This document shows positions 5,901 to 58,189 of a stretch of 64,000 nucleotides of DNA, in pieces. A program made the translations under genes and the position numbers. Source of the DNA: Dipteris shenzhenensis (taxonomy: Eukaryota); NCBI GenBank assembly GCA_047967505.1, contig CM106538.1. One strand, 5' to 3'. The notes under the pieces were generated by a model. That model had not been told where the DNA came from. It did no database searches and saw only the letters and a list, made by a program, of their open reading frames with translations. Each line of letters starts with the position of its first letter. The stretch's first letter is position 1.

Positions 5901-6750
5901 CTAGCCACAGTGCCATCCTTGCATGCAGGAGGTACTGAAAGGAAGAAACCTGATTTTTTAAAATTAGAAAAGAAAGAGTATCCCGAGGTTGAGAAGAAAG
6001 GGTTTCACCCTTAGAAGCCAAGGGGTACTTAGCTTTCAAAGTCATATAAAGGCAAATCCCCATTCACTCCTGAACAGATAGTTGAATTCCGCAGAGATGG
6101 GAAATGCTTTAAATGTGGGAAAGAGGGGCATATGGCTGCCCAATGCCCTGAGAAGCCTTCGGGTTCTAAGGAGTAGAAAAAGCCACAAGTACCACCATCG
6201 AGACCAATGGTGAGAGCAGTCCCAGATGTTTTGGATAGTACCTCAGACCCAAAGGAAAAAGAGCTTTTGCTATCATGGGGAAAGTAAGAGATCAGCAAGC
6301 ATTAATCCTATTTGATCCAGGGTCTACAGACAATTTCATATCCGAAGACTTAGCCCTGAGATTAGGGATCAAAACTGAAGAGCTAGGCAGAGCTCTTGAT
6401 GCTGATCAAATGTTCCAGGGGAATCCAGTGCAAGTTACTCCTTTGATTGGAAAGCTCCGTGTCAATGTGCATAGTTATATAGATCATGAGGACTTCTTAA
6501 TTTCTCCTCTCAAGTAGCATGATGTTGTACTTGGTACACCATGGTTCCATCGAAAGGGAGTAAAGATAGAATACCTTGAGAGGGTGCTGAGTTTTATCCA
6601 TAGAGGAAAAAACCAGCGTTTAGTTGCCAAGAATAAAGGGGAAACTATCCCCATTGTATCTGATGTTACATGTGGTAAAGCAATAAAATGTGCAATTTTC
6701 GTGTACATGGCTTTTGTAAAAGAACAAGGTGAATGATATTCAATCATTCA
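2907..6750 (+). mobile_element. Ty3/gypsy element A, 3'-truncated (LTR, PBS, gag, protease)
   Basis: LTR TGTAA...TTTCA (2907-3737, left edge approximate), PBS TGGTATCAGAGCC (3739-3751, tRNA-iMet), gag with CFKCGKEGHMAAQC knuckle (6105-6146), protease LFDPGSTDNF. Confidence 0.85.
2920..3177. promoter_or_regulatory. W-box (TTGACY) cluster in gypsy A LTR U3
   Basis: 10 TTGACY on either strand, several as TTGAC-N4-GTCAA palindromes at about 20-bp period. Function is inferred. Confidence 0.55.
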
Positions 6751-44300: not shown

Positions 44301-47300
44301 ATTGCAGCATCCTTTAGCTCCTGGAAATGTTTTCATCAAACCACATACAAGCACTGCAACATTTGGATCCTGAAACATCTCTGCTTGTTCCTGGACAAGT
44401 TGCTCTTCTGCTGCTACGTCCTCATCAATTGAATTACTTTCCTGCGGTCTTGAGTGAGAGCCACTGCATGTGCAGACATCACCGCCTGGAAAAAAATAAG
44501 TAAACACAGTGCAGAATTGATGGTGGGCATGATAAAAATTAGAGCTAATAAAACACACGATAATAGGGTGCAGGTAAACCTTCCAAGTTGCTAGATGTGC
44601 TCCCTATCCAATAAGATGGCCTTAGGAAGTAATTAAATGACTTCTTCACACCATTTACATCTTTGACAACATTGTCAAGGTATATTGCAAGCAGAAACCA
44701 TAGAAAGAACGTTGATGTAAGCCATATGTAAATCTGATCCTGGGGAGGCAGAATTTATCAAATTAGTTCGCTGTCTTTAGAGCGAATGCTGAAATTAAAA
44801 GGCTTCAAGACATTTGGCAACTCTTCTGTCACTGTACATCATTCTAGTGCTTAGTGAGTAGCAGCAGACTTCATGCAGAAATCAAAATCTATTTGTGATT
44901 TGGATTGGTCAGATAAGAATTTGTGATCATATGAAAGAATGCAATGCAGGGTGCATCTAGATGGCTGTCTATAGCAAAATGCAAAAATTTTGGAAGATCC
45001 TGCCAGTTTTGGATGCAGATTGTCAAATACCATTGTAAGGACACAATTTGGATCTGCAAAAGAACACCTCTTCCGGCCTTCCCAGCTGATACCTCTGTCC
45101 TGTTTTGTAGCAGTGGCATCTCCCAAGTATTGCAGACCGATGGCAAGGAGATTTGGAGGGAAGAGTGACCAGATTACTTGTAAAAACTTCGCAAAGGACT
45201 GGTCATAAGGAAAACCGAAGGCTGTGACTAACTGCATGCAGTGATAAAGGCCAGGCCAGTCAGAAGTACACTGAAAACAAACTCCTCCCAATTAACATAG
45301 GAGAGTGGATAAAAGCATACCTCTGTCAAAAAACCGATTATGAAAACAGAAAATCCAACAGTCCTGGCTGATGCTGAGTTGTGGACAAATGCTGACAGCA
45401 TAAATGCAAACCCGATCTTTTCCAATGTAAGGAATCATGCAACAAAAGAATCAGAAAGACAATATTCAGCTTAAAGAGAGGCATAAATTCCAAAGAAAAG
45501 CATTACAGATCTACTATGACCATTCAACATAAGAGACTCTATAGGGAAAAACAGTTGGAGACAAGGAAATAGGTCATTCATTAAGTATGCAAAATGGCCT
45601 TGACAATCACCTAAGTTTTCCAGAACATTTAGAAAATGAGTTAGATAGTTATAAGAAGCATAAATCAACAAAGAAATTCCCTGATCCAAAAAATTGAGGA
45701 AGAGATACTGAGTGTTGTTTCTGAGCAAAGGACTTGATGGAAAATGAGCATGATCTAGGCGATTTCCTCTCAATTGAAAATCACATGTATAATGCCATTG
45801 GAATGGAATACTGCTCTCTTAATTTTGCAAGTTGTGCTAGCATCTGCTGATGCTAACCATGCCTCATTACTTTACTATTCTGCATGTTTGTATATTCTTA
45901 TTAGAAGAATGCAAGTGGATAACTGCTTCTTTCTCGCTCAATTTGCCAAGTTGTCCCTTAGCTCCAGTAACAATCATAGGCTTGCCTCGACTGAGCCTTT
46001 GGGTGAGGACTTATAACATTTCAAGTGTGAAACAAGGTTTGTTGAGGTTCGAAAGTTTCTGCGTGGCATAGGGCTAACATAAATTTCAAAGGCTTTCAGT
46101 TCAGCCACCAAATGTGCCAACATGAGCTTCAAGGTCCAACTTCACAAGGTATCCCAACAGCTAGTGTCTAAGGAAACAGCTCATACTCTTCCAGAAGTGT
46201 TACTGGAGGCAAAAGGTCAGCGGTGCAAGGAGTCTCTATGCGAGCGTCCTACTCACATTCACTTACTTACATGCTATTATGGTGCAAGCAACTATGGAAG
46301 ACAGTTTCTGGAAGCACTCCCAAGCACATGAAGGTTACACCAATTCAATGCAACACTCAGAATGAAAGTATAATAGATTATCATCACCCTTTCACTTCAT
46401 TACTTGGCCATTGTCACTGCCCAACAAGATCAGTTCCAAGGTTGCTCCCAACAAAACCCATGTACAATGTTTATCAGGTGAGCCAAAATCTCTAGCTGCT
46501 TCTTCTCTCACTCTCCTCCTCCCTCTCTCTGTTATCTCCTCCCCATACAAATCTCTCCTCATCTCCTCTTCATGTGGCTTCATACACTTCTAATCACCAT
46601 AGCCTTCTCAAGCATGGGATCTTGAGCCCACTATTCAATAACGACAGGTCAGTAGGAGGCTGACCACAAGCCCGACAAATACCCGCCCGATCAAGGGGAA
46701 GGTCATCCCAGCATCATTGTGCCAGGCAGCTGCATGACACCCATAAATCTGACCCACGGGGCAGAGCAGAAGACAAGAAAAACTCGTTTTTTATATGCTC
46801 CAGAGACATTGGGACTCACCATCGACCCCAGTCCAGCACACGTCCAGCTCACATCATGCCCCTGGATAGGTGCCTGAGGACTCAAGTTTCCAAAGGCCCA
46901 TCCCACATGTATTTCTTTTCAGTAACATTCCATTTACATTGGCATTCATAGGGATCTAATAGACACATGTAGTTCCACGAAGTCTCTTGGTCAAACCCGG
47001 TGCTTACTAAAATATGTCAACAAATAAAAGAGAAAGATAATAAGAAATAAAGAAGAAAGGAAGAAGGTGACTAAGCAAAAATAAACAAGCAAATCAAGAA
47101 ACAAAATCGACCAAAAAACACGAATAAAAACTCTCTTTCTCTCACTCAAGTAAGAATGAAAGAAAGAATTTATAGAATGAATGAATTATTTAAAAAACTA
47201 AATGAACCTCTTCCACTTATGTATGGCTTCCTACAAAGATGCAAAATTACATTCCTAACTTAGAAAGCACATGCATACTCAATCAAACTCTCTTTTGGAG

Positions 47301-50300
47301 CTAAAAGTAAAACGGGTTTCAGCTCCCCACTTTTTGTTTTCAGCTTATGTTCAATCATTCTAAACATGCCTAAGGCCGATACACCATAGATAAAAGACTT
47401 CATATCCAAGATTGTGCGTACTTTTTTCATTATTTTTCTTGGATTATATCTCTTGTGTATTAGTAAAGTGATCAAATTACTACATTGAGTGATTAAAGAC
47501 TCCTTAGTTGCACAAAGGCAGGAAAGTCTATGGAATATTTTGCCAAATCAGAAATGTTTGAGTCAATGTGAGGCATTTTTATAGTGTGTAATTCACTATA
47601 TTCAGGTTATTCACGTTTATAATATATAAGCCTCTAATCCTACGGTAGATTGACAAAGTCTAAAATCTAAGAGAACACAAGAATCCCCTCTTGAAGTGCA
47701 GTTCAATTCACAAGAGTCGCAAGGATAGATTCCTTCTCTAAAAGCACAAGCATCTTTGTACATAAAGTCTTGAAAGTTAGGAACATTTGGTACAAATAAA
47801 TCATCTAGAAAACGCCTAACTTGACTAAGCTTATGTAAAATGATAGGTTAAGTATTGATAGAAATAAGACATTGCATAAACTCAAATTCCTAAGTGAAAA
47901 GATAAAAGTGTGCTAAAAAGACTAGTGCTCATAGGGATTCCTATAATTTGTTAAAACAAAGAATCACCTATTATCTAAAGAAAATCTATCCAAGAGCAAA
48001 CATCTTCAATACTTATGACCTTTGTGTCTCTTTTCCTTTTAGAATCAATGTCATGGTCTTTACTATTTAGCCACAACAAGTCAAAACATAAAGCTATTTT
48101 CTCAACTTTCAGCACTTGGCATCTATCTTTGTCAAATCTTAGGTTAAAAACTTCAGCCATTAGCTTTTTTATTCTAAACCAGCTCATCTTTGTAAAAGCG
48201 TAGTAAAGTCATAGGTTTGAAGGAGAATAGGAGGCTCTTTTTCTTGAATGCTTTGAGAGGAATTAAATTTTTTTATAATAGGAATCACTCCTAAAGAGTC
48301 ATTTAAAATCTAGCTTGATTACGAGGAGACATCTGCCTCCTTTAATAAGTCCCTCCAAACTTCATGGACACTAGGAAACATGGCTTTGAAGTAGTAGCTT
48401 AGCCATTTAGAGACATCTATGAAAGTAGTCTTACAAAGAAGCTGCAATTGAGAGTGCTCTCAACGGAAGCAAGAACGGAAGAGGGAGAGAAAGAAATAGA
48501 GAGCCACACAAGTTTTGGTGGGTGCAGAACCACCCTAATCTTCTTTTTCATTCATTTATATATGTGTTTGAGTATTGTACATAACCGGGGTAAAGGCACA
48601 GTGACCTTTAACCCCCACAACCTCCCACTTAAAGGATAATGTGCCTTTAAGGGAGAACAACCAGTGAGCATACTATCTGATGCCCATCAATACACGACAA
48701 TACTCAAACCGCTGACTAGGTAGACTCTTCGTCAGCATATCTGTAGGGTTATCATCTCTATGAACCTTGACAAGCTCTATGCGCTTGTCCTTAAGTACCT
48801 CCTTGATGAAATGGTACCTGAACTCAATGTGTTTGGTCTTTGCATGAAAGATCGGATTCCGTGCTAGCTAAATAGCACTCATGGAATCACTATGCAATGT
48901 CGGTACACCTGTATGAATCCCCAAATCTCCCACTAGCCTATCAAGCCATATAGCCTCCTTGCAACCCTCTGTGGTTGCAACATACTTAGCCTCTGTGGTA
49001 GACAAAGCAACGCACTTCTGTGCGTGAGACATCCACGACACTGTACCACCTGCAAAGGTTAACACATAACCAGAAGTGGATCTCCTACTATCCACATGCC
49101 CTGCATAGTCTGAATCTGTGTACCCAAGTACACGCATGTCTCCTTTACCAAAGCAGATGCACATCTCCTTGGTACCCTTCATGTACCTCATGATGCACTT
49201 AACTGCCTCCCAATGCCTCTTTCCTGGATTACCCATATACCGGCTAATAACTCCCACTGCAAATGTAATGTTTGGTCTAGTAGCTATCATAGCATACATA
49301 AGACTCCCAATTGCTGATGCATAAGAAACCTTGACCATCATGGCCCTCTCCTCATCTGATTTGGGACTATCTGTATGACTCAGTTTCACATATGGAGGCA
49401 ATGGAGTACTCACTGCCTTCCCCCCCTCCATATTGAAACGCTGCAATACTTTTGTAACATACTTCTTCTGTGAAAGCCAAAGGAGTTTTTTACTCCGATC
49501 ACGCGTGATGCGCATACCAAGAATATGACCTGCAAGTCCAAAATCCTTCATATCAAAGGCCTCATGCAACTTGGCCGTTAATGCATCTAGCTCATAAGTA
49601 TTCTTGCTAGCCAACAGCATATCATCCACATATAGTGCCAGGATTATCAGGCTATTATCCTTAGCCCTTTTAGTGTAGAGGTAGTGATTAATTTCACTCC
49701 TTTTAAAACCCTGGGACTGAATGAAAGCATTAAACTTCTGATACCATTCTCTAGGCGCTTGCTTAAGACCAGAGAGACTCTTCTTCAGCTTGCAAACTAA
49801 ATGCTCTTTGCCCTTTTCTTCAAAGCCTTCTGGCTGCACCATGTAAATTTCCTCATGCAAATCCCCATGCAAGAAAGCTGTCTTGACATCCATCTGCATA
49901 AGCTCCATATCCTCTACTGCCACTAGTCCAAGCATGCATCTAAGTGGTCATCTTCACAACCGGAGAGAATATCTCATCAAAGTCCACACCCTTCTCTTGC
50001 TTGAACCCTTTAGCGACCAAACGGGCCTTGTACCTACGCACATCATCACCTGTGACCTTCATTTTGTAGACCCATTTACATGGCAATGCTTTCTTTCCAT
50101 GTGGCAAAGAAACCGAGTCCCAAGTCTTATTCTTCATAAGTAAACTCATCTCTGATTGCATAGCATGCTCCTACTTGCGTTGATCCTCACGCATCATAGC
50201 CTCTCTGTAGCAAGAAGGCTCCCTGCAATCAGTAAGCATCACATAGTCTACCCTTGGAACAAACCTATCAGGCGGTCTAGACACTCTAGATGATCTTCTC

Positions 50301-53300
50301 AAGGGCATTTCAGCTTGCTGTCCCACCTGCATATCAGCCACATTTGGCTCATCATTTCCACCAATAGATGATCCATCATCTACCCTTGATTGTATACCTG
50401 TGGGAGTATTTGGTGGTACCATTTCTTGCACATTTGGTGCATGGACAGCTTACTGTCTATCAACATATGCAAGTGGATTCACATCCTGGAAAGCGATTCT
50501 CCTCATTTCAACCTCCCTCATGGGTGCCTTCTGCATTTTCTTCTCATTGAAGACTATATCATGGCTGCGTATGATCTTCTTTGCTTCTGGATCCCAGAGA
50601 CGATAGCCCATCTCTCCACTTTCACCATAACCCAGAAAGATGCATTTCCTAGACTTAGGATCTAGCTTCTTTCGAAGCTCTTTCGGCACATGTGCATATA
50701 CCTCACACCCAAATATATGTAAATGAGAGTAAGAGGGCTTCTTGCCACTCCATGCCTCTTCAGGAATACCACCATCCAAACTCTTACTAGGTAATCTATT
50801 GATCACATGCACTGCAGTCTTCATTGCCTCAGCCCAAAAACCACCAGAAAGACTTGCATTGGAAAGCATGCATTGCAACCTTTCTTAAATCACACAGTTC
50901 ATCTTTTCTGCAACTGGATTTTGCTCTGGAGTACGAGGGGATGTGAGCTCCCTCTTAATCCCACCTGTATCACAGAAATGCTGAAAGTCATGAGAGAGAT
51001 ACTCTCCACCATTGTCAGTCCGTAGGCATTTAAGCGTTCTACCTGACTGATTCTCAACCAAGGCCAGCCATTTCTGAAATACCTGAAATACATCACTCTT
51101 CTGAGCTATAGCATAAGCCCACACTTTCCTAGTTGCATCATCAATGAATGTCACATAGTATTCAGCCCCGCCTAATGACCGTGTAGGCATGAGACCACAT
51201 ACGTCTGAATGCACCAAATCAAGCTTTTCAAACTCTTTCTTTCCCCTTCTTTTATGGGCTGATTTAGTCTGCTTCCCATATAGACAGTGCTCACAAAATT
51301 CAAAATCAAAGAAACTCAAATGCGGTACATAACCCAAACGGCATAAGAGTTTCATTCCATTTTGGCTCATGTGCCTCAACCTGCAATGCCATAAAGAAGT
51401 GCTTGGCTGCTCGGTTATTGCAACAACATGATCAAATATCCCTGATACATGTAAGGGATACAAAGTCCCACACTTGGTACCCCTGGCCAAAAGCATAGAG
51501 TCCTTCTGAATTTTCCAACTCTAAAAACCAAAAGTAGTGTGAAAACTAGCATCATCTAGCTGACCCACTGAAATAAGACTCTTGGTCAACTTAGGCACAT
51601 GTCTCACATGTTTCAAAATAAATGCAGACCCATTTGCAAAAGAAAACTTTATGTCACCTGCTCTGACTATGTCACATGCATAGTCATTTCCAAGATGCAC
51701 ACAACCTGCCTTTCCACTGTCATAAGTGGAGAACCATTCCCTATGGGGAGTAACATGGAATGAAGCACCAGAATCCAAAATCCAATCTTGGGAATATGCA
51801 TCATCTGAAGTGGTAAGCAACTCTGCAGATAAACTAGACATGAAGAGAATGTCATTGTCACTATCATGTGTGACTGCATTGATCTCCTCAATCTTCACTT
51901 TTCCTTTGTCCTCCCTTGGACTCTCTTCCTTCTTATTTGCACCCCAATTTGCATTCTTTTTCTTATCCTTTTGCTCCCTTTTCAGCTTGTAGGAATCCTT
52001 TTTCATATGGCCCTTCTTGCCACAGTGGTAACACTCAATGTTCTATGCCCTGGATTTGCTACGAGACTTTCCTCTTTCTTGGGACTTCCCCCTGAACTGT
52101 GATCTGCCCCTTTGCATATTTAAGGCTGCATCCTGCTTGTTGCCGTCCATAGACTTCCGTCTAATCTCCTCGGCCAACAAGCTACCCACAACATCATCCA
52201 CCAGGTGCAGAGTTACTGATAGCTGTACGGAAGGTATCCCAAGAGGATGGCAATGAACATAAGAGAAATATTGCCTTAGTCTCCGCATCAAAATTCATCT
52301 TCTGAGCCTGAAGCTGGCTGAAAATAATATTAAATTCATTCAAGTGAGAAGCAATGGAGACCCCTTCCTTCATCTGCAGCTCAAACAACCTCTTCATGAG
52401 GTGAACTTTATTAGAGGCAGTTTCCTTCTCATAAGTGCCACACAGTTTCTTCCACAAATCTTCCGTAGTCTGCTCATTTACTACTATGAAAATAAACAGA
52501 CTCTGCAAGATGAAGTCTAATAGTAGACTTTGCTAATGTATCCAACTCATTCCAATCATCCTCAGACATATTTGCAAGCTTAGCTTCAATCCCTGCCAAG
52601 GGTTTAATCTGTTTCTTTTGAATAAGCACATCCCTTATCTGTTCTTTCCACAAAGAAAAGTTTGTCCCATCAAACTTTTTAATGTTGAAAAACTCCTTTT
52701 CAGACATGGAAGAGGATGCCATGATGCAAATAAAGCAAAATCCCAAATGCTAGTGCCTGTAAGAGAGAATCACACCAAATACCAGGTGCACCCAAATGTG
52801 TATGCCACAATAGAGTGCAATATCACCAAAACTCAAAGCTCAAAGCATCAAAAGATGCATCTGACTCATGTGCATATACTATGCATCCATATGAGCAAAT
52901 CTGGCCCAAAAGAAAATGCCAACTGCAATGGCAATCCAAAATGCTAGTAAGTGCCAAATGGCTCAAGTATAAAGACCGTCCATGGGCATATGCATCAATA
53001 ATATCTCATCCAAGAGAGCATAGCACTATCAGTACATCACCTGTAATGTGTCAAAGCTGTCCCTCAGCATAAAATAGCATCCATGTGCAAAGCGTCCATA
53101 AAAATAGCATCCCACAAGGCAATTTGGGCCTATCAGCGCATCCAATAAGGACCGCAATGCATCCAAATGGCCTATAAATCATCCACTGCAACCCAATGCA
53201 TACCGCGAATGAGCGCACAACACTGCTCAAACTGTAACCAGAGTGATCTACATAAGATATGCTCAAGAAATCATGGTCCCACGGTAATGACTACTACTGA

Positions 53301-56300
53301 AAAATAGAACCTGAGATGCCTCAAAACATGGGCACCATTGCATAATCGGACTCAGCAAGAAAATTTGCAAATCTCTCTCTTCTGCCGGAACTCCAAAATC
53401 CCAACCGATGAGTGAGAAATGGGAGTCAACACTTATCCACTGCCATGTGGCATAAATCTAAGGTTTCAAAACCTTAGAATGAAAAATGCATAAAAGAGAG
53501 ATGAAATCGAATACACAGAAATCTATAACTCTGAAAATCCTCCACCGAATCGCGCAAGAATTGACAGATAGGGATTTTTGGGCGTCCGGAACGCAATGGG
53601 ACAGACGGTTTTGAAAACCGTGGTCTCAATCATTGGGTCCAACACATGGATTGAAAAACGTTTTTGGAAACAGAGCTGTTTGTAAACTCCACCGGAGTGC
53701 GAATGATGAGCAACATAGAAGTTTTAGGACCTCCTGAGTCCACCGGAACTGACAGATCTGCAAATGGTTGCTCCAAACTTGAGTTCCAACACCCGAGCAG
53801 AAAAACGTAAGAACTGACACAGTGAGTCAAAAATCCAATGAAATGATCCTAGATTCAAGAATGAAGGTGTTTCTAAGCTCCTGAAGTGAAGTGGACACCA
53901 AAAGCAAGCAATAGTTGCCTCTACAAGTCAATACGAAGTCTCTGTCATCGAACGGAACAGAGAAAAGCTCAAAAAACGACTTTTTCTTTGAAAACACTTA
54001 ATAGGCTCTCAAAACCACTTCGCAAAGCCAAAGTGACTTTTCCAAAGGTTCCTCCAAGGTCTCTATACACTCGGATGCAGGTAAAGTCACCCACAAAGCT
54101 TCCCACAGAGCTTCTCCTGCTTCCCACAGAGCTGCTGAGCTTCCAGGCATTCACGCACTCTCAGCTAGATCACTCGGGCTCTGATACCAGTTGAGAGTGC
54201 TCTCAATGGAAGCAAGAACGGAAGAGGGAGAAAGAAAGAAACAGAGAGCCACATAAGTTTTAGTGGGTGCAGAACCACCCTAATCTTCTTTTTCATTCAT
54301 TTATATATGTGTTTGAGTATTGTACATAACCGGGGTAAAGGCACAATGACCTTTAACCCCCATAGCAATAAATCTTGGCTTATTTGGAGTTTTGTGAAAC
54401 TTCCAAGCAGCACAAAGAAAAGGGATACTTAGATTGCAAACAAGCCCTGAAGACTTGTAAAAACTCTGGTGTTGCTTTTGAGAAACTAAGGCACGGGCGT
54501 AAGTTTTGGCTAGCGAGTTTAATTCTCTCAAAATACATTCTAAGTAAACATTTTTGCAAATAAAAACAAAATTAATGGAACATTTGTCTATATAAGATAT
54601 GACAAATTTCCTACGGAATTTTCAAAGAAGAGTTTCACCTTCTTTAGAAAGATGGTTACTTTGCTTTGAGCAATTAACTGAAGAGACTTCTTCTAGTTTC
54701 AAACTCACTTTCTTCAAAATCTTCCCTTTCCATTCTGATACAATATTTTGAACTCCTAAACTTTCTTCTATTTGCAAAGAAAACTTTGAGATTCCCTTAT
54801 CAATAGCTTTTAAAAGGAAAGACTATTTTGAAGAGTACAATCGAAATTTCGTGCCTTTCATGAAAAGGTCTCTTTAGTTACTAGAAAGTAAAATTGAAGT
54901 ATTAGATGTGGCTACATGTCCTAAATCAGCATCAATGAAGCTTTGGAATCTCTTTCTTTTACAACAACAAGGTTCTCTAAGGATAGAAGATTTTGAATGC
55001 TTTGAAAGCCTTTTACCTATCTCTCCATAGTTGAAAGCCTTTTGTCCTAAAGTTTTTGCATACTTCCAACCCACTATTAATTCTTCTCACATAATAAGGG
55101 AAAGAATCCATTACTTTAGGAGACTTCAAAATTGAGTGCAAGCCTACCTTATCAAGAGAAGAAGTAAATATAGAAAGCAAGAGTTTCTTATTATAATGGA
55201 GTTCTTTGCTTTGAAAGGAAGCTTTTAGTTTTAAGAGGCGATCCAATAGTGCTTTAAGCTGTATATAATGGAGCTTATTTAGATTCAAATCCTCAAAAGA
55301 GAAGTTTTCCAAGGTGTATAGAAGTTTGAACATAACTTTGACATTATATTTTTCAAAACCTTTTAATTGAAAAAAGACCCAGAGACATTAGTCTATCTAG
55401 GTAAAGAAGTCTTCTTTTATAGTCTCGAGAAGCAAAAACTCTTGGAACTGAGGAAGCTAAAGGAACTGAAAGAGGAGGAGAGGAACTGAGGGAAGCAAAT
55501 CACGATCAACATGAGAGATTGTAGGAGAGCTAAGAAAATCCCATAGCATAACTTTAGGTTTTCATACAAGGGTATGTATATGACTGTTGATAAGGAGAAA
55601 TGTTAAAAGGCTTGACATGAGTTCTCCACATCATAGGGTTCTTTTATTCTTATGATGAGTTGATTTTTCCTTCCAAATTTAAACCTCTTGGGAAGAAAGT
55701 CATCCAAAACAATTCAGGAGATCAAGCAACCTTGTAAAAATGCTTGGCATTTTTAAAATGGTCCTCTATATGCTTAATATGAAAGCAACGAAAAGATTTT
55801 AAACCTGATTTTGCCATTGCCACATATAAGGTTTTTAAAATTTCAATCAAGGAATTCTTCTTATGAACTTTTCTAGCTTCCCTAACATGTTCTTGAAACT
55901 GAATAAAAGCCTTCTAATAGGTTTGTCCTACATAAAGCATATTACTACTATGTATGTTATAGACAACATAAATTACTTGTGTGGTATGAATAGGACTAAT
56001 AGGAACGGAAATCTTAAGATGCTTGTTTCTAAGACGTCTTAGTTTATTAAGAATTCTTATGTTATTATTTATAATGAGTGCTAGCTAATAAAGCCTTAAA
56101 GTTAGACCAATTGATGTTACCTTCACCAAAATCATTCATGTTTGACCTAGCTAAAAAGTTAAACCTTTCTCTACATATGTTTCTTCGAACCTTTTTGTTT
56201 TGATTTACTTAGCTAGACCCAATTAAATCACCTACCAAAAAGACAAGAATCACTAGCATTTCCAATGTTGTTCGGTGAGGTCAGGTGATCCAACATTGGG

Positions 56301-58189
56301 GAACTTGTTTGCACTCTCCTTGCCCATCTCAAGGAAGTTTCTCCCTTACTAATAACTATATCCCCTAACTCTAGCACGAGCAAGACTAGTATTTAGGGGG
56401 AGGCTTGTTTGCACAGTCGTTACTCATCCGAAGGTAACTCCTTCCTTACTACTACAAGGGTACGTCACAAGAGCCAGATGACGTCAAGGGAGATCGCTTT
56501 GTTGGTTTCCAAAAGGCAAATTCATCATAGCATGTATCCCTAAGCCAATATACCCCCCGAATTGGAGATTACAATTAGGGTTAGCCAGGGCCCCAAGGCC
56601 ACTGTAAGAGCTTTTTCATCGTAGAAAAGCCAAAAAAGAGAGAAAAGTTAAGTTACAAAGATAAAATAAAACTTTAAAAAATAAATAAAATAAGGTGGAG
56701 AAGAGAGAACAACACTACCAAAGACAAGAATTGGTAATGGGAATATAGACTTGTGGAGGAGGTTGGTGTAAAGAGTTGAGGAGGGCTTTGGGAGAAAGGA
56801 GGGGTTTGGGGAAGCAGGGATAGAGTGCTTTTTGATATTGGAAGGACGGGAGATGCATGCAACATGCACCACAAATAGTTATTAATAGCAACTATGCACT
56901 TGGGAATTGAGACATTGTGGAATCTTTTGCATATTGTTCGCATAATAGCATTCATTGGGGACTTGGCTTGGACAATTGCAGCAAGTGCAGACCTTCTCTT
57001 GAGGCAAGTCTGCAAGTAGCCGTGGCTGGTCCTAATTGCCCTATTGGCCTTCCACAAATGTTCATAAGCCTTTCTTTCTTTCTTTCATTTTCCAATGTTC
57101 ACATTAAATATCATTGAGATGCGCTAGACACCTGTAGTCCCCCTACATGGGCTGTATGAGCCCATGGCTGGTCCTAATTGCCCTATCCTGTCTTTTTTTT
57201 TTTTCATAGGCTTTTTTGGCCTTCCACAAATGTTAATACACCTTTCTTTCTTTCATTTTCCAGTGTTCAAATTAAATATCATAGAGTTGTGCTAGACACC
57301 TGTAGTTCCCCTACATGGGGTGTATGAGCTTGATGTATTTCAGACTTTGGTCTCATTGGACTTTTGATCTTTCCTAGACATTATTAAATCTTTCTTTCTT
57401 TTTCCTCCCTCCATTGATGGGGCTTGCAAACTAGGCCTTTAAATATTAGAGGATGCATGCAAATAGTAACCTAGAGCATGATCATTGTATCCTAGAATGG
57501 TACTTTGTGGCAGACCTTAACCTCTCATACTGTTTGATCAGCAAGTCATGGTGCTCCTAAGATGACATCGATTGGCCCTAATTGGGTGACAATGAAAGAG
57601 CCTTTTGCTTTTACTGCTTTGGCATCATTCTCTCTTCAGTAGCCTCGGTTGTCTTTCGTCATTTCTAGCTTTATTCTTCCTTTCCCATGGATACACAAGC
57701 ATACATAGACTTTTAATCTATAGAATAATCAAGAAATGTGTTACCATGTTGAATTGGAAGAGGAAAAACATGAAGAAAAGTACGCCAAAATTGTTGTGGA
57801 GGAAAAAATCGAATTGAAACATCATGCCAAAGAGTACAATAAGAGTCGAGGATATCAATGCCAACACGAACTCCCATAAAAGCCAAGATAACCAATATGC
57901 TGAGTCCAGAAGCCCCATTATCGACATGGCCTGGAGAAGCCCAGAAGCTGAAATGTTAATATCTCTTCAATTATATGAAAAACTCAATATATAACAGTTT
58001 GACAGACAGACTTAATTACCTGCCGAAGTTTTAGCTCCCTCTCAGTAACAAGGTTGCTCATTTGAATGACAAATCCAAACATGGTAGCTGCGAGCAGGAA
58101 GATAGGCCCTACTGTCCCAACTGTTGAAAATGTTTCAAGGCTGGGGTGAGCATATTCCTTGAATGCAACTGACCATTCAATGGTTGAAT
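13626..58189 (-). CDS. ABCA2: ABC transporter A family half-transporter (ABCA2/ATH1-like), partial, 13 exons in window
   Basis: Spliced exons join in frame without stops. TM region ...[16 protein letters not shown]..., Walker [11 protein letters not shown]-loop GVCPQ, signature [10 protein letters not shown], Walker B VYLDEP, H-loop [10 protein letters not shown]-terminal [12 protein letters not shown]. Collinear with Arabidopsis ABCA2 as I recall it. All introns between visible exons are GT-AG. Confidence 0.93.
14009..14089 (-). CDS. ABCA2: ABCA exon ([27 protein letters not shown])
   Basis: NAGNAG acceptor AAGCAG, donor ACG|GTACTT, 81 bp. Confidence 0.88.
14188..14478 (-). CDS. ABCA2: ABCA exon ([13 protein letters not shown]...KSFFKE)
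   Basis: H-loop. Acceptor CTGCAG, donor GAG|GTGAGA, 291 bp. Confidence 0.93.
14628..14771 (-). CDS. ABCA2: ABCA exon with ABC signature and Walker B
   Basis: [27 protein letters not shown]. Acceptor ATACAG, donor CCG|GTAATA, 144 bp. Confidence 0.93.
14964..15053 (-). CDS. ABCA2: ABCA exon ([14 protein letters not shown]...LVKE)
   Basis: Acceptor TTTCAG, donor GAG|GTAATT, 90 bp. Confidence 0.92.
15143..15219 (-). CDS. ABCA2: ABCA exon (ALVYGNSIR...MGVCPQ)
   Basis: Acceptor TCACAG, donor CAG|GTATGC, 77 bp. Confidence 0.92.
15470..15587 (-). CDS. ABCA2: ABCA exon with Walker A ([31 protein letters not shown])
   Basis: Acceptor TTGCAG, donor ATG|GTATGT, 118 bp. Confidence 0.93.
16282..18352 (+). 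mobile_element. Ty1/copia element A, left part (leader, deleted gag, RT start); same family as copia C
   Basis: Homologous to the reverse complement of 20366-26383 ([46 protein letters not shown]). Several internal deletions including PR and INT. No matching 5' LTR found. Confidence 0.85.
16509..16625 (+). repeat. Perfect 51-bp tandem duplication (2.3 copies)
   Basis: AAATTTGGGGCTTTTAGTTCAATTGCCTCTTTCACGGGCAATTTCTTGCAG twice. Confidence 0.95.
20021..20157 (+). mobile_element. 137-bp poly(A)-tailed retro-insert (5'-truncated LINE or SINE)
   Basis: A13 tail (20145-20157) and 8-bp TSD GCCTATGG (20013-20020 and 20158-20165). Removing it restores gypsy [14 protein letters not shown]. Confidence 0.88.
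20366..26383 (-). mobile_element. Complete Ty1/copia element C (decayed ORF)
   Basis: LTRs 20366-20593 and 26150-26383 (TG..CA, about 11 substitutions and 2 indels), TSD ATCGT, PBS tRNA-iMet 26136-26147, gag from 24929, [21 protein letters not shown], RNase H, PPT. Confidence 0.96.
25623..26018 (-). promoter_or_regulatory. CCGTAC array in the copia C 5' leader
   Basis: 11 exact GTACGG on the plus strand plus decayed variants in about 400 bp. Function is inferred. Confidence 0.5.
29271..33762 (+). mobile_element. RTEX-like LINE copy 3 with the whole RT deleted; inserted in gypsy B 3' LTR; 5' edge approximate
   Basis: ORF1 about 29962-31200, endonuclease from WNCNG (about 31254), deletion junction at about 32397, C-terminal region, 3' motif and (CTTT)n tail. 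Confidence 0.88.
29279..29820 (+). repeat. (CT)n microsatellite followed by a C-rich GCTA(C/A)CCCC minisatellite
   Basis: Directly visible; dozens of CGCTACCCC/GCTAACCCC units. Confidence 0.9.
34590..36890 (+). mobile_element. RTEX-like LINE copy 4, 5'-truncated; YADD region deleted
   Basis: [31 protein letters not shown]. 35535-36890 is highly similar to 32398-33762. 3' motif and (CTTT)n tail. Confidence 0.9.
35164..35180 (+). repeat. Short interstitial plant telomeric repeat (AACCCTA)2.4
   Basis: AACCCTAAACCCTAAAC at a deletion junction. Confidence 0.75.
37900..43428 (+). mobile_element. L1 LINE (a), near full length, decayed; 5' edge approximate
   Basis: ORF1 with plant L1-type RRM region and CFECKKFGH knuckle. 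ORF2 endonuclease (TLNVLG, GDCN, SDYAP), RT (GWDG, WRPITL, DIAKAFD, QGCPL, YADD), zf-RVT, poly(A). Confidence 0.88.
43441..44104 (+). mobile_element. L1 LINE (b), 5'-truncated, inserted at the tail of L1 (a)
   Basis: zf-RVT ([13 protein letters not shown]), 3' UTR, A8 tail, 12-bp TSD GTGTGTG(C/T)G(C/T)GC. Confidence 0.85.
44268..44485 (-). CDS. ABCA2: ABCA exon (GGDVCTC...DEDVAAEE...YHAVK)
   Basis: Acceptor TTTCCAG, donor AAG|GTTTGG, 218 bp. Confidence 0.92.
44580..44739 (-). CDS. ABCA2: ABCA exon (DQIYIWL...[16 protein letters not shown])
   Basis: Acceptor CCCCAG, donor GAAG|GTTTAC, 160 bp. Translated by hand; not in the ORF track. Confidence 0.9.
45031..45231 (-). CDS. ABCA2: ABCA exon (LVTAFGFPY...NCVLTM)
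   Basis: Acceptor ATGCAG, donor ATG|GTATTT, 201 bp. Confidence 0.92.
45321..45416 (-). CDS. ABCA2: ABCA exon ([10 protein letters not shown]...IGFLTE)
   Basis: Acceptor GGAAAAG (weak), donor GAG|GTATGC, 96 bp, in frame. Confidence 0.88.
48449..54364 (-). mobile_element. Complete Ty1/copia element D (Tnt1/Tork-like), decayed
   Basis: LTRs 48449-48619 and 54192-54364, TSD GCAAT, PBS tRNA-iMet 54176-54189, gag [39 protein letters not shown], RNase H, PPT AAGTGGGAG. Confidence 0.95.
56261..56545 (-). ncRNA. Candidate tandem hammerhead-like structured RNA units in the PLE leader
   Basis: Three GATG(A/G)-N13-AAAC cores about 100 bp apart, separated by sequence-unrelated hairpins. Cores are non-canonical. 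Confidence 0.4.
57022..57400 (+). repeat. Imperfect tandem duplication (about 140-165 bp) ending in a degenerate RTEX-type 3' tail
   Basis: TGGCTGGTCCTAATTGCCCTAT...CTAGACACCTGTAG..CTACATGGG.TGTATGAGC twice, then GGTCTCATTGGAC...AGACATTATTAAATCTTTCTTTC. Confidence 0.6.
57745..57930 (-). CDS. ABCA2: ABCA exon ([16 protein letters not shown]...FQFNM)
   Basis: Acceptor CTCCAG, donor ATG|GTAACA, 186 bp. Confidence 0.92.
58020..58189 (-). CDS. ABCA2: ABCA exon ([15 protein letters not shown]...TERELKLRQ)
   Basis: Acceptor TTTACAG, donor CAG|GTAATT, 170 bp. Confidence 0.9.

Follow-up and report, generated by a model that had tools for sequence, protein, structure and literature searches.

The window, by which we mean the whole stretch of 64,000 nucleotides that was analysed, carries on its minus strand a decayed Penelope-like element (PLE) that, as judged from its sequence, is of the Chlamys/Naiad type with an N-terminal GIY-YIG endonuclease. 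By tblastn the element was recovered in pieces at 56045-55683, 55442-55365, 55077-54316, and—beyond an inserted Ty1/copia retrotransposon, whose target-site duplication is GCAAT—at 48417-47353. The first of these pieces matched the N-terminal ORF of a related locus (L001) at 46% over 131 aa (E 2.4e-28), with the RT lying downstream; the L001 ORF in turn scored 21.9 bits against the Pfam GIY-YIG model (cut-off 22.6), and the window piece alone gave no Pfam match. The relatives were retrieved by exhaustive search, a word-index protein search having found none, and a related high-copy family was encountered in a few metagenomes. Among the 12 long homologues scanned, six contained an N-terminal GIY-YIG and six a C-terminal RVT_1, with three having both and three neither. 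Chlamys elements lack, and Naiad elements possess, a CCHH zinc finger in the endonuclease, for which feature the window copy is too decayed. The motifs EPCCCKRK, within the ORF at 54874-55086(-), and IDKC, within the ORF at 54301-54621(-), are both conserved among the homologues; a CxC linker motif and, ahead of the RT, a DK(G) motif are given as criteria of the N-terminal-endonuclease PLEs in the accessible part of PMC8557442.

Upstream of the ORF, two tandem units match the stretch at 46977-46883, in the element's own 3' UTR, better than shuffled sequences do (0/500 as good), which relationship is that of a pLTR, here over only ~170 bp and in diverged form. Between those pLTR-like units and the ORF lies an array of units about 100 nt long, plausibly in the PLE leader; the sequence-only reading had assigned the array to a PLE, and that context was borne out. 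The array as a pLTR in its own right was rejected, since its resemblance to the 3' UTR of the element is at shuffle level (145/500 as good). A weak match to an ABC-2 type transporter exon, below the Pfam cut-off and on the strand of the PLE, agrees with the earlier claim that the array is sense to a host pre-mRNA, and our best reading is that the array is located in an intron of a plant-like gene. The features are collected in Table 1.

Table 1. Features of the PLE locus and of the array in its presumed leader (positions in the window)
Feature	Position	Strand	Remarks
PLE 3' UTR	46860..47352	-	last ~95 nt (46977-46883) match the upstream 170-bp units; 3' end inferred
Rest of PLE RT to ORF end	47353..48444	-	DFTTLL and RFLDD motifs
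Ty1/copia LTR retrotransposon inside PLE RT	48445..54362	-	LTRs 48445-48617 / 54188-54362, 95% identical
Linker and RT start	54363..55442	-	CCC (CxC) motif ~54961-54969, DKC ~54580-54588
GIY-YIG endonuclease, N-terminal part of PLE ORF	55683..56140	-	decayed: in-frame TAG and frameshift
Presumed leader	56141..57019	-	from the pLTR-like units down to the GIY-YIG frame's first ATG (56140); boundaries inferred
Hairpin A	56262..56299	.	CCAATGTTG / CAACATTGG; 9 bp, loop 20
Unit A conserved block	56304..56356	-	38/53 identical to unit B; core-like strand GAGATGG
Hairpin B	56362..56399	.	CCCCTAA / TTAGGGG; 7 bp, loop 24; columns as in hairpin A, sequence different
Unit B conserved block	56404..56456	-	sense: TAGTAAGG-N9-CCTT-CGGATGA-GTA-N7-TGC-AAACAAG
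Hairpin C	56462..56484	.	ACGTCA / TGACGT; 6 bp, loop 11; start in register; overlaps the palindrome TGACGTCA at 56479-56486
Putative unit C motif	56505..56527	-	TGATGA-N12-GAAAC; no helix II, no likeness to A or B
Two tandem ~170-bp units, pLTR-like	57020..57360	-	88-92% alike; share homology with the terminal part of the 3' UTR of the element itself
Putative host exon, ABC-2 type transporter membrane region	57721..57966	-	E 7.8e-5, 22.4 bits, cut-off 31.6

Units A and B constitute a gapless direct repeat with starts at 56304 and 56404, that is, with a spacing of 100. Two such 53-bp repeats had been announced with 40 identical positions; the repeat itself was upheld, but by direct count the identity is 38/53. 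A repeat search of the window returned 51 nt at 75% identity, and the local alignment scored 39 against 13.8 ± 2.1 for shuffled sequences, none of the 2000 shuffles equalling the real pair; blastn against the window gave an E of 0.009, and Tandem Repeats Finder, run on the window, did not call the repeat. The letters of the minus strand likewise confirmed the sense-strand pattern first reported, TAGTAAGG-N9-CCTT-..GATGR-GYA-N7-TGC-AAACAAG. The homologous units are two in number, both being products of one duplication, and their identity is uneven, amounting to about 37-38/53 in the block and to 17/47 in the hairpin part. Between the two, stems and joining strands have changed less than loops, in that mismatches fell on 8 of 16 loop positions against 5 of 34 elsewhere in the comparison (p 0.014), a contrast with some circularity in it, the stems having been chosen from conserved segments. 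Two G-U pairs, one in helix 1 of unit A and the other in helix 2 of unit B, occur on the sense strand of the element only.

The three hairpins described along with the units are present, their perfect stems beginning at 56262, 56362, and 56462, in exact 100-nt register. They make up the single triple of equally spaced hairpins (stems of at least 6 bp) at a period of 100 in the window, where 0.029 would be expected per period; when all 251 periods between 50 and 300 are considered, the window holds six such triples, so that they are common at some period, and hairpins with stems of at least 6 bp number 506 in the 64 kb. Hairpins A and B are both perfect and occupy the same columns despite their differing sequence, five predicted pairs being altered on both sides with the pairing kept; the statement that the layout is preserved and the sequence is not therefore holds for the in-register hairpins, of which the double changes and the single period-100 triple are the evidence. 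The pairs are all Watson-Crick and thus the same on both strands, for which reason the hairpins may be DNA palindromes. Folding gave no excess stability of the array over shuffles (z -0.66 and -0.30), nor did single units (z +0.30 to -1.61) fold better than shuffles on either strand.

As to the third unit proposed near 56502, its motif, TGATGA-N12-GAAAC at 56527-56505, stands 98 nt from the GATGA of unit B, and the string GATGR-N13-AAAC occurs four times in the window, three of the matches being units A, B, and C, which rarity is overstated by the post hoc choice of the motif. Alignment of unit C with A and with B remained at chance level (1182/2000 and 1215/2000 shuffles as good), the identity ranged from 21 to 33% over all shifts from -6 to +6, and a covariance model of A and B did not find unit C even with its filters off. 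The spacing and the hairpin claimed for the third unit were thus recovered and the repeat likeness to A and B was not, so that we count two units as certain and a third as possible.

The hammerhead ribozyme has C3-U4-G5-A6-N7-G8-A9 as its first core strand and G12-A13-A14 as its second. This numbering agrees with the motif table in the part of the PMC8557442 supplement at hand. An intact first strand is found in none of the three units: unit B reads CGGAUGA, with U4 turned into G; unit A reads GAGAUGG, with C3, U4, and A9 changed; and unit C reads AUGAUGA, with C3 turned into A. At the second strand, both A and B have UGC-AAAC and are without G12, GAAAC being present in unit C only. The helix II position of A and B is occupied by a 3-bp GYA/UGC stem with a 7-nt loop, in which stem of three pairs only, one changes from C-G to U-G between the units; unit C has no stem there. 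At the helix III position, unit A reads AC-AA-GU-U, a form that fits A15.1-U16.1 followed by H17, and unit B reads AC-AA-GC-C, with U16.1 lost; unit C has none. Neither the sequence nor the consensus fold contained in any unit a helix I closing a three-way junction; the CCUU 5' of the core pairs with an upstream AAGG and not with the CCCC or UCCCC past the putative cleavage site, and the consensus fold of A and B consists of three separate hairpins.

The Rfam searches gave a corresponding picture. At gathering score the whole window contained no ribozyme match; the hammerhead models had no match at E<=10 either in 2 kb or in the 321 nt at 56240-56560, where the weakest match listed at that threshold had 15.2 bits; and in the latter interval, on both strands, the models for twister, twister-sister, pistol, hatchet, HDV-like, and hairpin ribozymes had none at E<=10, so that the comparison with hammerhead and twister-sister models came out negative. 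The pattern CTGANGA-N4-30-GAAA matched the window 10 times, against 7.6 expected, and never within the array. With no Rfam ribozyme match, no intact core, and no helix I, the sequence-only reading of the units as hammerhead-like, or as a new self-cleaving motif, is unsupported.

That reading had started from the premise that PLEs carry hammerheads, and minimal type I hammerheads in PLE pLTRs are indeed attributed to Cervera and de la Pena 2014 in the accessible part of PMC8557442. The same part of that paper, however, reports canonical hammerheads to be absent from the N-terminal-endonuclease PLEs, except in subclades of Chara and spike moss, and in 294,900 bases from 30 loci of the closest related family sampled we found no Rfam family at all at gathering score, nor a hammerhead at E<=10 in the 3' UTR of one related locus; for the clade to which the window element belongs, then, the premise fails. 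These results bear directly on the possibility that the units go back to minimal type I PLE hammerheads, arranged in tandem, whose core and helix I have since been lost, and whose ancestral units would once have processed the element's transcript, which account, taken as a whole, we consider unlikely. What lends that descent some probability is that the outline of the block resembles a minimal type I PLE hammerhead: the succession of GAUGR, a 3-bp helix with a 7-nt loop, AA, and, in unit A, AC-AA-GU-U parallels the arrangement 'ctgatga / stem II / gaa / ac-NN-gt / H' in the portion of the PMC8557442 supplement at hand; unit C reads UGAUGA...GAAAC; three of the four window matches to the spaced motif are the units themselves; and hammerheads are reported, in what is accessible of the same source, from streptophyte Chara families and from PLE-X1 families of Selaginella. 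Against such descent stand the silent hammerhead models, the broken first core in every unit, the absence of G12 from A and B and of helix II from C, the lack of a helix I, the absence of any Rfam family at gathering score from the 30 related loci, and the lack of canonical hammerheads reported for the clade outside a few subclades. The G12 loss shared by A and B is not independent evidence of selection, since the duplication of one non-canonical unit would give the same result.

A bolder alternative is that the tandem units represent a variant hammerhead or a new self-cleaving class that substitutes for the hammerhead missing from this PLE clade. The 100-nt unit would then be a lineage-specific catalytic RNA, repeated in the leader of N-terminal-endonuclease PLEs of land plants; whether a self-cleaving fold of a new kind or a derivative of the hammerhead in strongly reduced form, it would be built of two small hairpins joined by GAUGR and AAACAAG and followed by a stem-loop fixed in position and free in sequence. 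The better preservation of stems and joining strands than of loops, the in-register hairpins with their paired changes, and the confinement of the G-U pairs to the sense strand are what such a ribozyme might leave behind; nevertheless, a three-way junction cannot be constructed, the consensus fold falls into three separate hairpins, none of the other Rfam ribozyme models responded, no thermodynamic signal appeared, the comparison involves only two homologous sequences from a single duplication, and the model of A and B found nothing in the related loci, on all of which grounds we regard a catalytic array as very improbable.

Still more improbable is a reading of the array as snoRNA-like genes that are clustered in an intron and processed out of the host pre-mRNA. 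Its intronic position, sense to the host gene, and the box C-like UGAUGA of unit C would suit that idea, as would a weak match to the C/D-box family snoZ165 in Rfam (15.2 bits, E 5.6), which score, however, compares with a gathering score of 90. Judged by the features of a box C/D snoRNA (RUGAUGA, CUGA, and a terminal stem), units A and B contain no canonical box C, UGAUGA being confined to unit C, and a CUGA box D with a terminal stem occurs in none of the units. A tRNA scan found none, and a scan for promoters and terminators of the bacterial type, whose models are ill-suited to a eukaryote, stayed at chance level.

Homologous leaders were sought in several ways. In blastn, the region 57750-54363 matched only coding parts of 80 related loci, along with one 25-nt chance match; the window leader resembled the leaders of relatives L010 and L057 at chance level (98/300, 19/300, and 21/300 shuffles as good); and nhmmer with a profile of 21 copies of the 3' UTR recovered only the ORF end at 47390-47314. 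Run over 517,517 bases of loci, the covariance model of A and B gave no convincing hit (best E 0.33), and elsewhere in the window it reached at most 11.6 bits (E 1.6), while the consensus pattern of the block had 0 matches in a collection of genome contigs and 0 in one of viral contigs. In the related family the 5' end lies only ~180 nt upstream of the ATG, and in relative L057 the stretch that runs from a copy of the 3' end, lying upstream, to the ATG includes a tandem duplication (193 nt, 82%).

These searches leave room for a neutral local duplication that has no connection with the PLE, in which event the array would derive from the intron itself or from part of some other repeat and would happen to lie between PLE pieces, with the hairpins being DNA palindromes or chance. 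We judge this explanation to be rather unlikely. In its favour, nothing in the PLE or its relatives resembles the array, hairpins of at least 6 bp abound in the window, and the upstream ~170-bp units show much more likeness to one another (88-92%) than to the 3' UTR of the element and so may belong to a different, older insertion. Chance, in contrast, would hardly place three hairpins in exact 100-nt register at the very site and period of an independent sequence repeat, nor does uniform neutral decay leave near-random hairpin interiors beside a block conserved at 70%.

Our leading explanation, which we hold at somewhat less than an even chance, is that the array preserves, as a fossil, the tandem duplication of a module that was structured but not catalytic, made up of ~100 nt of non-coding sequence in the leader of a dead PLE. 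The unit would consist of a ~50-nt block with two very short stem-loops and of a stem-loop of 7-9 bp whose position was kept as its sequence was replaced, which stem-loop may have been under selection within the leader RNA while the family was active, likely in protein binding, stability, or translation, or as part of an internal promoter built from monomers. The units could have arisen through unequal recombination, slippage, or RT template switching, and at the present day the array would be transcribed, if at all, merely within the host intron; in its present form the module would never have cleaved RNA. The significant repeat of A and B, its uneven identity, the in-register hairpins with five double changes, and the two G-U pairs confined to the sense strand argue for this fossil-module account, as do the lack of ribozyme matches, the match of the 170-bp units to the end of the element's 3' UTR and the tandem repeats in L057 and in several Chlamys families. 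Arguing against the same account are the short distance from 5' end to ATG in the related family, the relatives' leaders, which are unlike that of the window, and the failure of any unit or strand to fold beyond shuffles; moreover, with one decayed copy only, the array may belong to flanking intron DNA or to another repeat instead of to the element.

Known systems offer partial parallels. In mouse LINE-1 the 5' UTR is an array of monomers, tandem leader units upstream of the ORF, and the repeated leader acts as a promoter; the present array also consists of leader units repeated ahead of the ORF of a retrotransposon and by analogy might have had a promoter role, although a PLE is a different class of element. 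Nearer to hand, tandem repeats in several Chlamys families are noted without description in the accessible part of PMC8557442, and the window element resembles those families in its N-terminal GIY-YIG, CxC linker, and DK motif as well as in the tandem repeats of its non-coding part. With the hammerheads of PLE pLTRs the array shares a tandem arrangement in non-coding PLE sequence and the order GAUGA, short hairpin, AA(A)C, and—in one unit—a 2-bp helix III-like AC-AA-GU; it differs from them in that its core is broken at essential places in all units, in its want of G12 (A and B), of helix I, and of a covariance-model match, in its location in a leader rather than a terminal repeat, and in belonging to a clade reported, in the accessible text of PMC8557442, as devoid of canonical hammerheads but for a few subclades. 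Non-LTR retrozymes, tandem repeats each with a type I hammerhead that are proposed to be non-autonomous PLE derivatives in the part available of bioRxiv 10.64898/2026.07.22.740005, are likewise short PLE-linked tandem units with, in each unit, a string of hammerhead type; the retrozymes, as described there, have working canonical hammerheads and are mostly of animals, whereas the array has but two or three units, none of them canonical.

Were the catalytic reading true, the unit would release the element's RNA from host intron transcripts, as hammerheads do in other PLEs, and a working ribozyme here would both explain RNA processing in the PLE clades that lack hammerheads and add a new self-cleaving motif; the evidence does not lean toward this. 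In the portion of the PMC8557442 supplement at hand, Selaginella is the sole land-plant genus, and its entries are PLE-X1 families without endonuclease only; the locus described here places an endonuclease-bearing PLE, seemingly of the Chlamys/Naiad type, in a plant-like genome. Within that element, a stem-loop held in place through complete turnover of its sequence would be a small hint of a structured cis element, and the hint concerns an almost unstudied group of plant retroelements.

The window holds plant-like eukaryotic DNA. When the ORF at 54301–54621 of the decayed Penelope-like element (PLE) served as query in an exhaustive protein search, 54 relatives were returned at E ≤ 1e-3; a Pfam scan of 12 long ones found an N-terminal GIY-YIG domain in 6, a C-terminal RVT_1 in 6, both in 3 and neither in 3. 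A metagenome scan then gave 102 relatives, from which 80 loci were kept; these represent a related family and not the PLE family of the window. The locus with the longest ORF (L008) aligns to window positions 55442–55365, 55077–54316 and then 48417–47353, and the N-terminal ORF of another (L001) to 56045–55683. The gap is filled by a Ty1/copia element with LTRs of ~175 bp that are 95% identical, a target-site duplication GCAAT, and the Pfam domains RVT_2, rve and gag_pre-integrs. By the permuted domain order, CxC linker and DK(G) motif, which features define the group in the portions of Craig et al. (2021; PMC8557442) consulted, the PLE is of the N-terminal-endonuclease type; for this type those portions report canonical hammerheads as absent, except in subclades of Chara braunii and spike mosses.

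Features of the PLE and of the array in its presumed leader, in window coordinates
Feature	Position	Strand	Remarks
Tandem units of ~170 bp (two)	57020–57360		88–92% alike; repeat search
Hairpin A	56262 (start)		9 bp, loop 20; perfect inverted repeat
Hairpin B	56362 (start)		7 bp, loop 24; perfect inverted repeat
Hairpin C	56462 (start)		6 bp, loop 11; perfect inverted repeat
Unit A core	block 56304–56356		first strand GAGAUGG; second strand -AA, no G12
Unit B core	block 56404–56456		first strand CGGAUGA; second strand -AA, no G12
Unit C core (putative unit)	56505–56527		first strand AUGAUGA; second strand GAA; no helix II
GIY-YIG-like N-terminus (VIYVVYN ... LYVGQT ... QEH)	around 56045–55683	minus	first in minus-strand order
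CCC (CxC) motif	ORF 54874–55086	minus	after the GIY-YIG-like N-terminus
DKC motif	ORF 54301–54621	minus	after the CCC (CxC) motif
Ty1/copia element	48445–54362		inside the PLE RT; fills the gap between PLE pieces

The plant-like genome carries, at 46860–57360 on the minus strand, an endonuclease-bearing N-terminal GIY-YIG PLE with CxC and DK motifs; Selaginella, the sole land-plant genus in the part of the PMC8557442 supplement table that the comparison covered, is listed there with only endonuclease-lacking PLE-X1 families. The related family is high-copy and mostly decayed, in a handful of metagenomes. Within the RT, 60 nt (54368–54428, coding about LPFLCAVWKFHKNPIKPRF) share 79–89% DNA identity with their counterpart in nearly all related loci, which lies at about 6200–6270 in more than 70 of them; overall, the proteins are only ~45% alike. 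This stretch may be under strong codon-level or RNA-level constraint.

The array was placed by the sequence-only reading in the PLE leader, sense to a host pre-mRNA. With the endonuclease frame opening at a first ATG at 56140, the array precedes the ORF by 120–400 nt and follows the ~170-bp units, which units significantly resemble the 3′-UTR end of the PLE (46977–46883; scores 43 and 48 against ~23 ± 3.4, none of 500 shuffles being as good) and are therefore pLTR-like copies of that end. Thus the position fits a leader, as judged from this one copy; the orientation likewise fits a same-strand ABC-2-type exon (57721–57966), itself a weak match below the Pfam cut-off (E 7.8e-5). The array bore no likeness to the PLE 3′ UTR (145 of 500 shuffles as good), and the leaders of two related loci (L010, L057), whose common 5′ sequence extends only ~180 nt upstream of the ATG, could not be aligned with that of the window. 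That the array arose by neutral local duplication and has nothing to do with the PLE we consider rather unlikely, if the strongest of the rival readings. Locus L057 carries its own 193-nt tandem duplication (704–1061, 82%) between an upstream 3′-end copy (54–472) and the ATG (about 1414), and tandem repeats are noted in several Chlamys families in PMC8557442 and its supplement table.

In L001 (4001–4468) the PLE copy begins 5 nt before the ATG and abuts a host-like open reading frame, and is therefore 5′-truncated relative to L010 and L057. A segment of 20–24 nt at 56572–56595, immediately upstream of the array, is a 75–80% inverted complement of the beginning of both pLTR-like units (57019–57038 and 57157–57180); inverted partial copies have been described for PLE insertions, and this segment may be what is left of one.

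A repeat search within 56261–56545 found one clear direct repeat, 56304–56354 against 56404–56454 (51 nt, 75%, spacing 100), whose local alignment score of 39 far exceeds chance (dinucleotide shuffles gave 13.8 ± 2.1, and none of 2000 did as well); blastn against the window recovered it at E 0.009, Tandem Repeats Finder did not call it, and pattern scans for the block consensus in two sequence collections gave no matches. The gapless 53-bp repeats at 56304 and 56404 and their minus-strand wording therefore stand as first read, but the count of 40/53 identical positions falls to 38/53. Identity is 37/53 in the block, against only 17/47 in the hairpin part. Mismatches concentrate in two small loops (8/16 against 5/34 in the rest of the block; Fisher p 0.014); part of this clustering is circular, given that conserved segments supplied the stems.

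A third unit near 56502 had also been proposed. It keeps the motif spacing (TGATGA-N12-GAAAC at 56527–56505) and an in-register hairpin, but has no sequence likeness to the others: its alignment is at chance (1182 of 2000 shuffles as good against B, 1215 against A), its identity with B is 21–33% at all shifts from −6 to +6, and a covariance model of A and B run over 1 kb with filters off did not find it at E ≤ 10. Across both strands of the whole window GATGR-N13-AAAC, a motif picked after looking at the sequence, matches four times, three of them at 56526, 56428 and 56328. Unit C is accordingly possible as a third repeat unit.

As to the hammerhead-like character ascribed to the units, each fails the core rules, no bases before the core pair with bases past the putative cleavage site in any of the three, and the consensus fold consists of three separate hairpins with no junction. 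The comparison with Rfam agreed: no family reached gathering score in the whole 64 kb, and at E ≤ 10 neither a hammerhead nor any other ribozyme model appeared in 55500–57500 or 56240–56560, the weakest match listed for the latter scoring 15.2 bits. The canonical pattern CTGANGA-N4-30-GAAA has 10 matches in the window, about as many as chance would give (7.6), and none of them falls within the array; 30 related loci (294,900 bases) held no Rfam family at gathering score, nor the L008 3′ UTR a hammerhead at E ≤ 10. That A and B both lack G12, which had been taken as a hint of a motif, is no independent sign of selection, because one duplication of a single already non-canonical unit would give the same. 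A variant or new self-cleaving RNA is very improbable in our estimate, and snoRNA-like genes more improbable still. The order of elements in unit A (GAUGA, a 3-bp helix, AA, AC-AA-GU-U) nevertheless parallels that of the minimal type I hammerheads tabulated for PLEs in the PMC8557442 supplement, and hammerhead-bearing streptophyte relatives exist; a long-dead derivative of a hammerhead therefore stays among the rival readings, as a distinctly unlikely one.

In the related family the 3′ UTR (L008 7425–7864 aligned with 20 other loci) conserves two features: a hairpin CCCACTG/CAGTGGG whose loop contains CTGATGA, which may correspond to the 'HHR_core' cases of PMC8557442, and a terminal hairpin that immediately precedes the 3′ end, ...TATGAAAGATA. 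An Rfam match to plasmodium_snoR27 (an H/ACA snoRNA; 55651–55784, plus strand), whose 38.5 bits fall short of the gathering score of 50 (E 0.001 in 2 kb), lies in an AT-rich stretch antisense to the PLE ORF and is probably spurious.

Hairpins with stems of at least 6 bp are common (506 in the window). Hairpins A, B and C form its sole period-100 triple (expectation 0.029 per period); since all 251 periods from 50 to 300 yield 6 equally spaced triples, the weight rests on this triple coinciding with the sequence repeat in both place and period. Hairpins A and B are in register and have their outer C-G pairs in common, and five other predicted pairs are altered on both sides with pairing retained, on minus and plus strands alike; these changes and the low identity of the hairpin part bear out, for A and B, the remark that the layout was kept while the sequence was not. 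Two G-U pairs of the A/B fold are present on the sense (minus) strand only. The pairs of the position-fixed hairpin are all Watson-Crick, so a DNA-level palindrome is also possible. Hairpin C overlaps TGACGTCA, which we take to be a putative bZIP/CRE-type site. Neither the array (folding z −0.66 sense, −0.30 antisense) nor the single units (−0.85, −0.04 and +0.30 sense; −1.46, −0.62 and −1.61 antisense) give a thermodynamic signal.

The best sign that something was kept is a hairpin fixed in position through full turnover of its sequence. As the most likely reading, held tentatively and with somewhat less than even confidence, we propose that a structured, non-catalytic module in the leader of a dead PLE of Chlamys/Naiad type was duplicated in tandem and that the array is its fossil.
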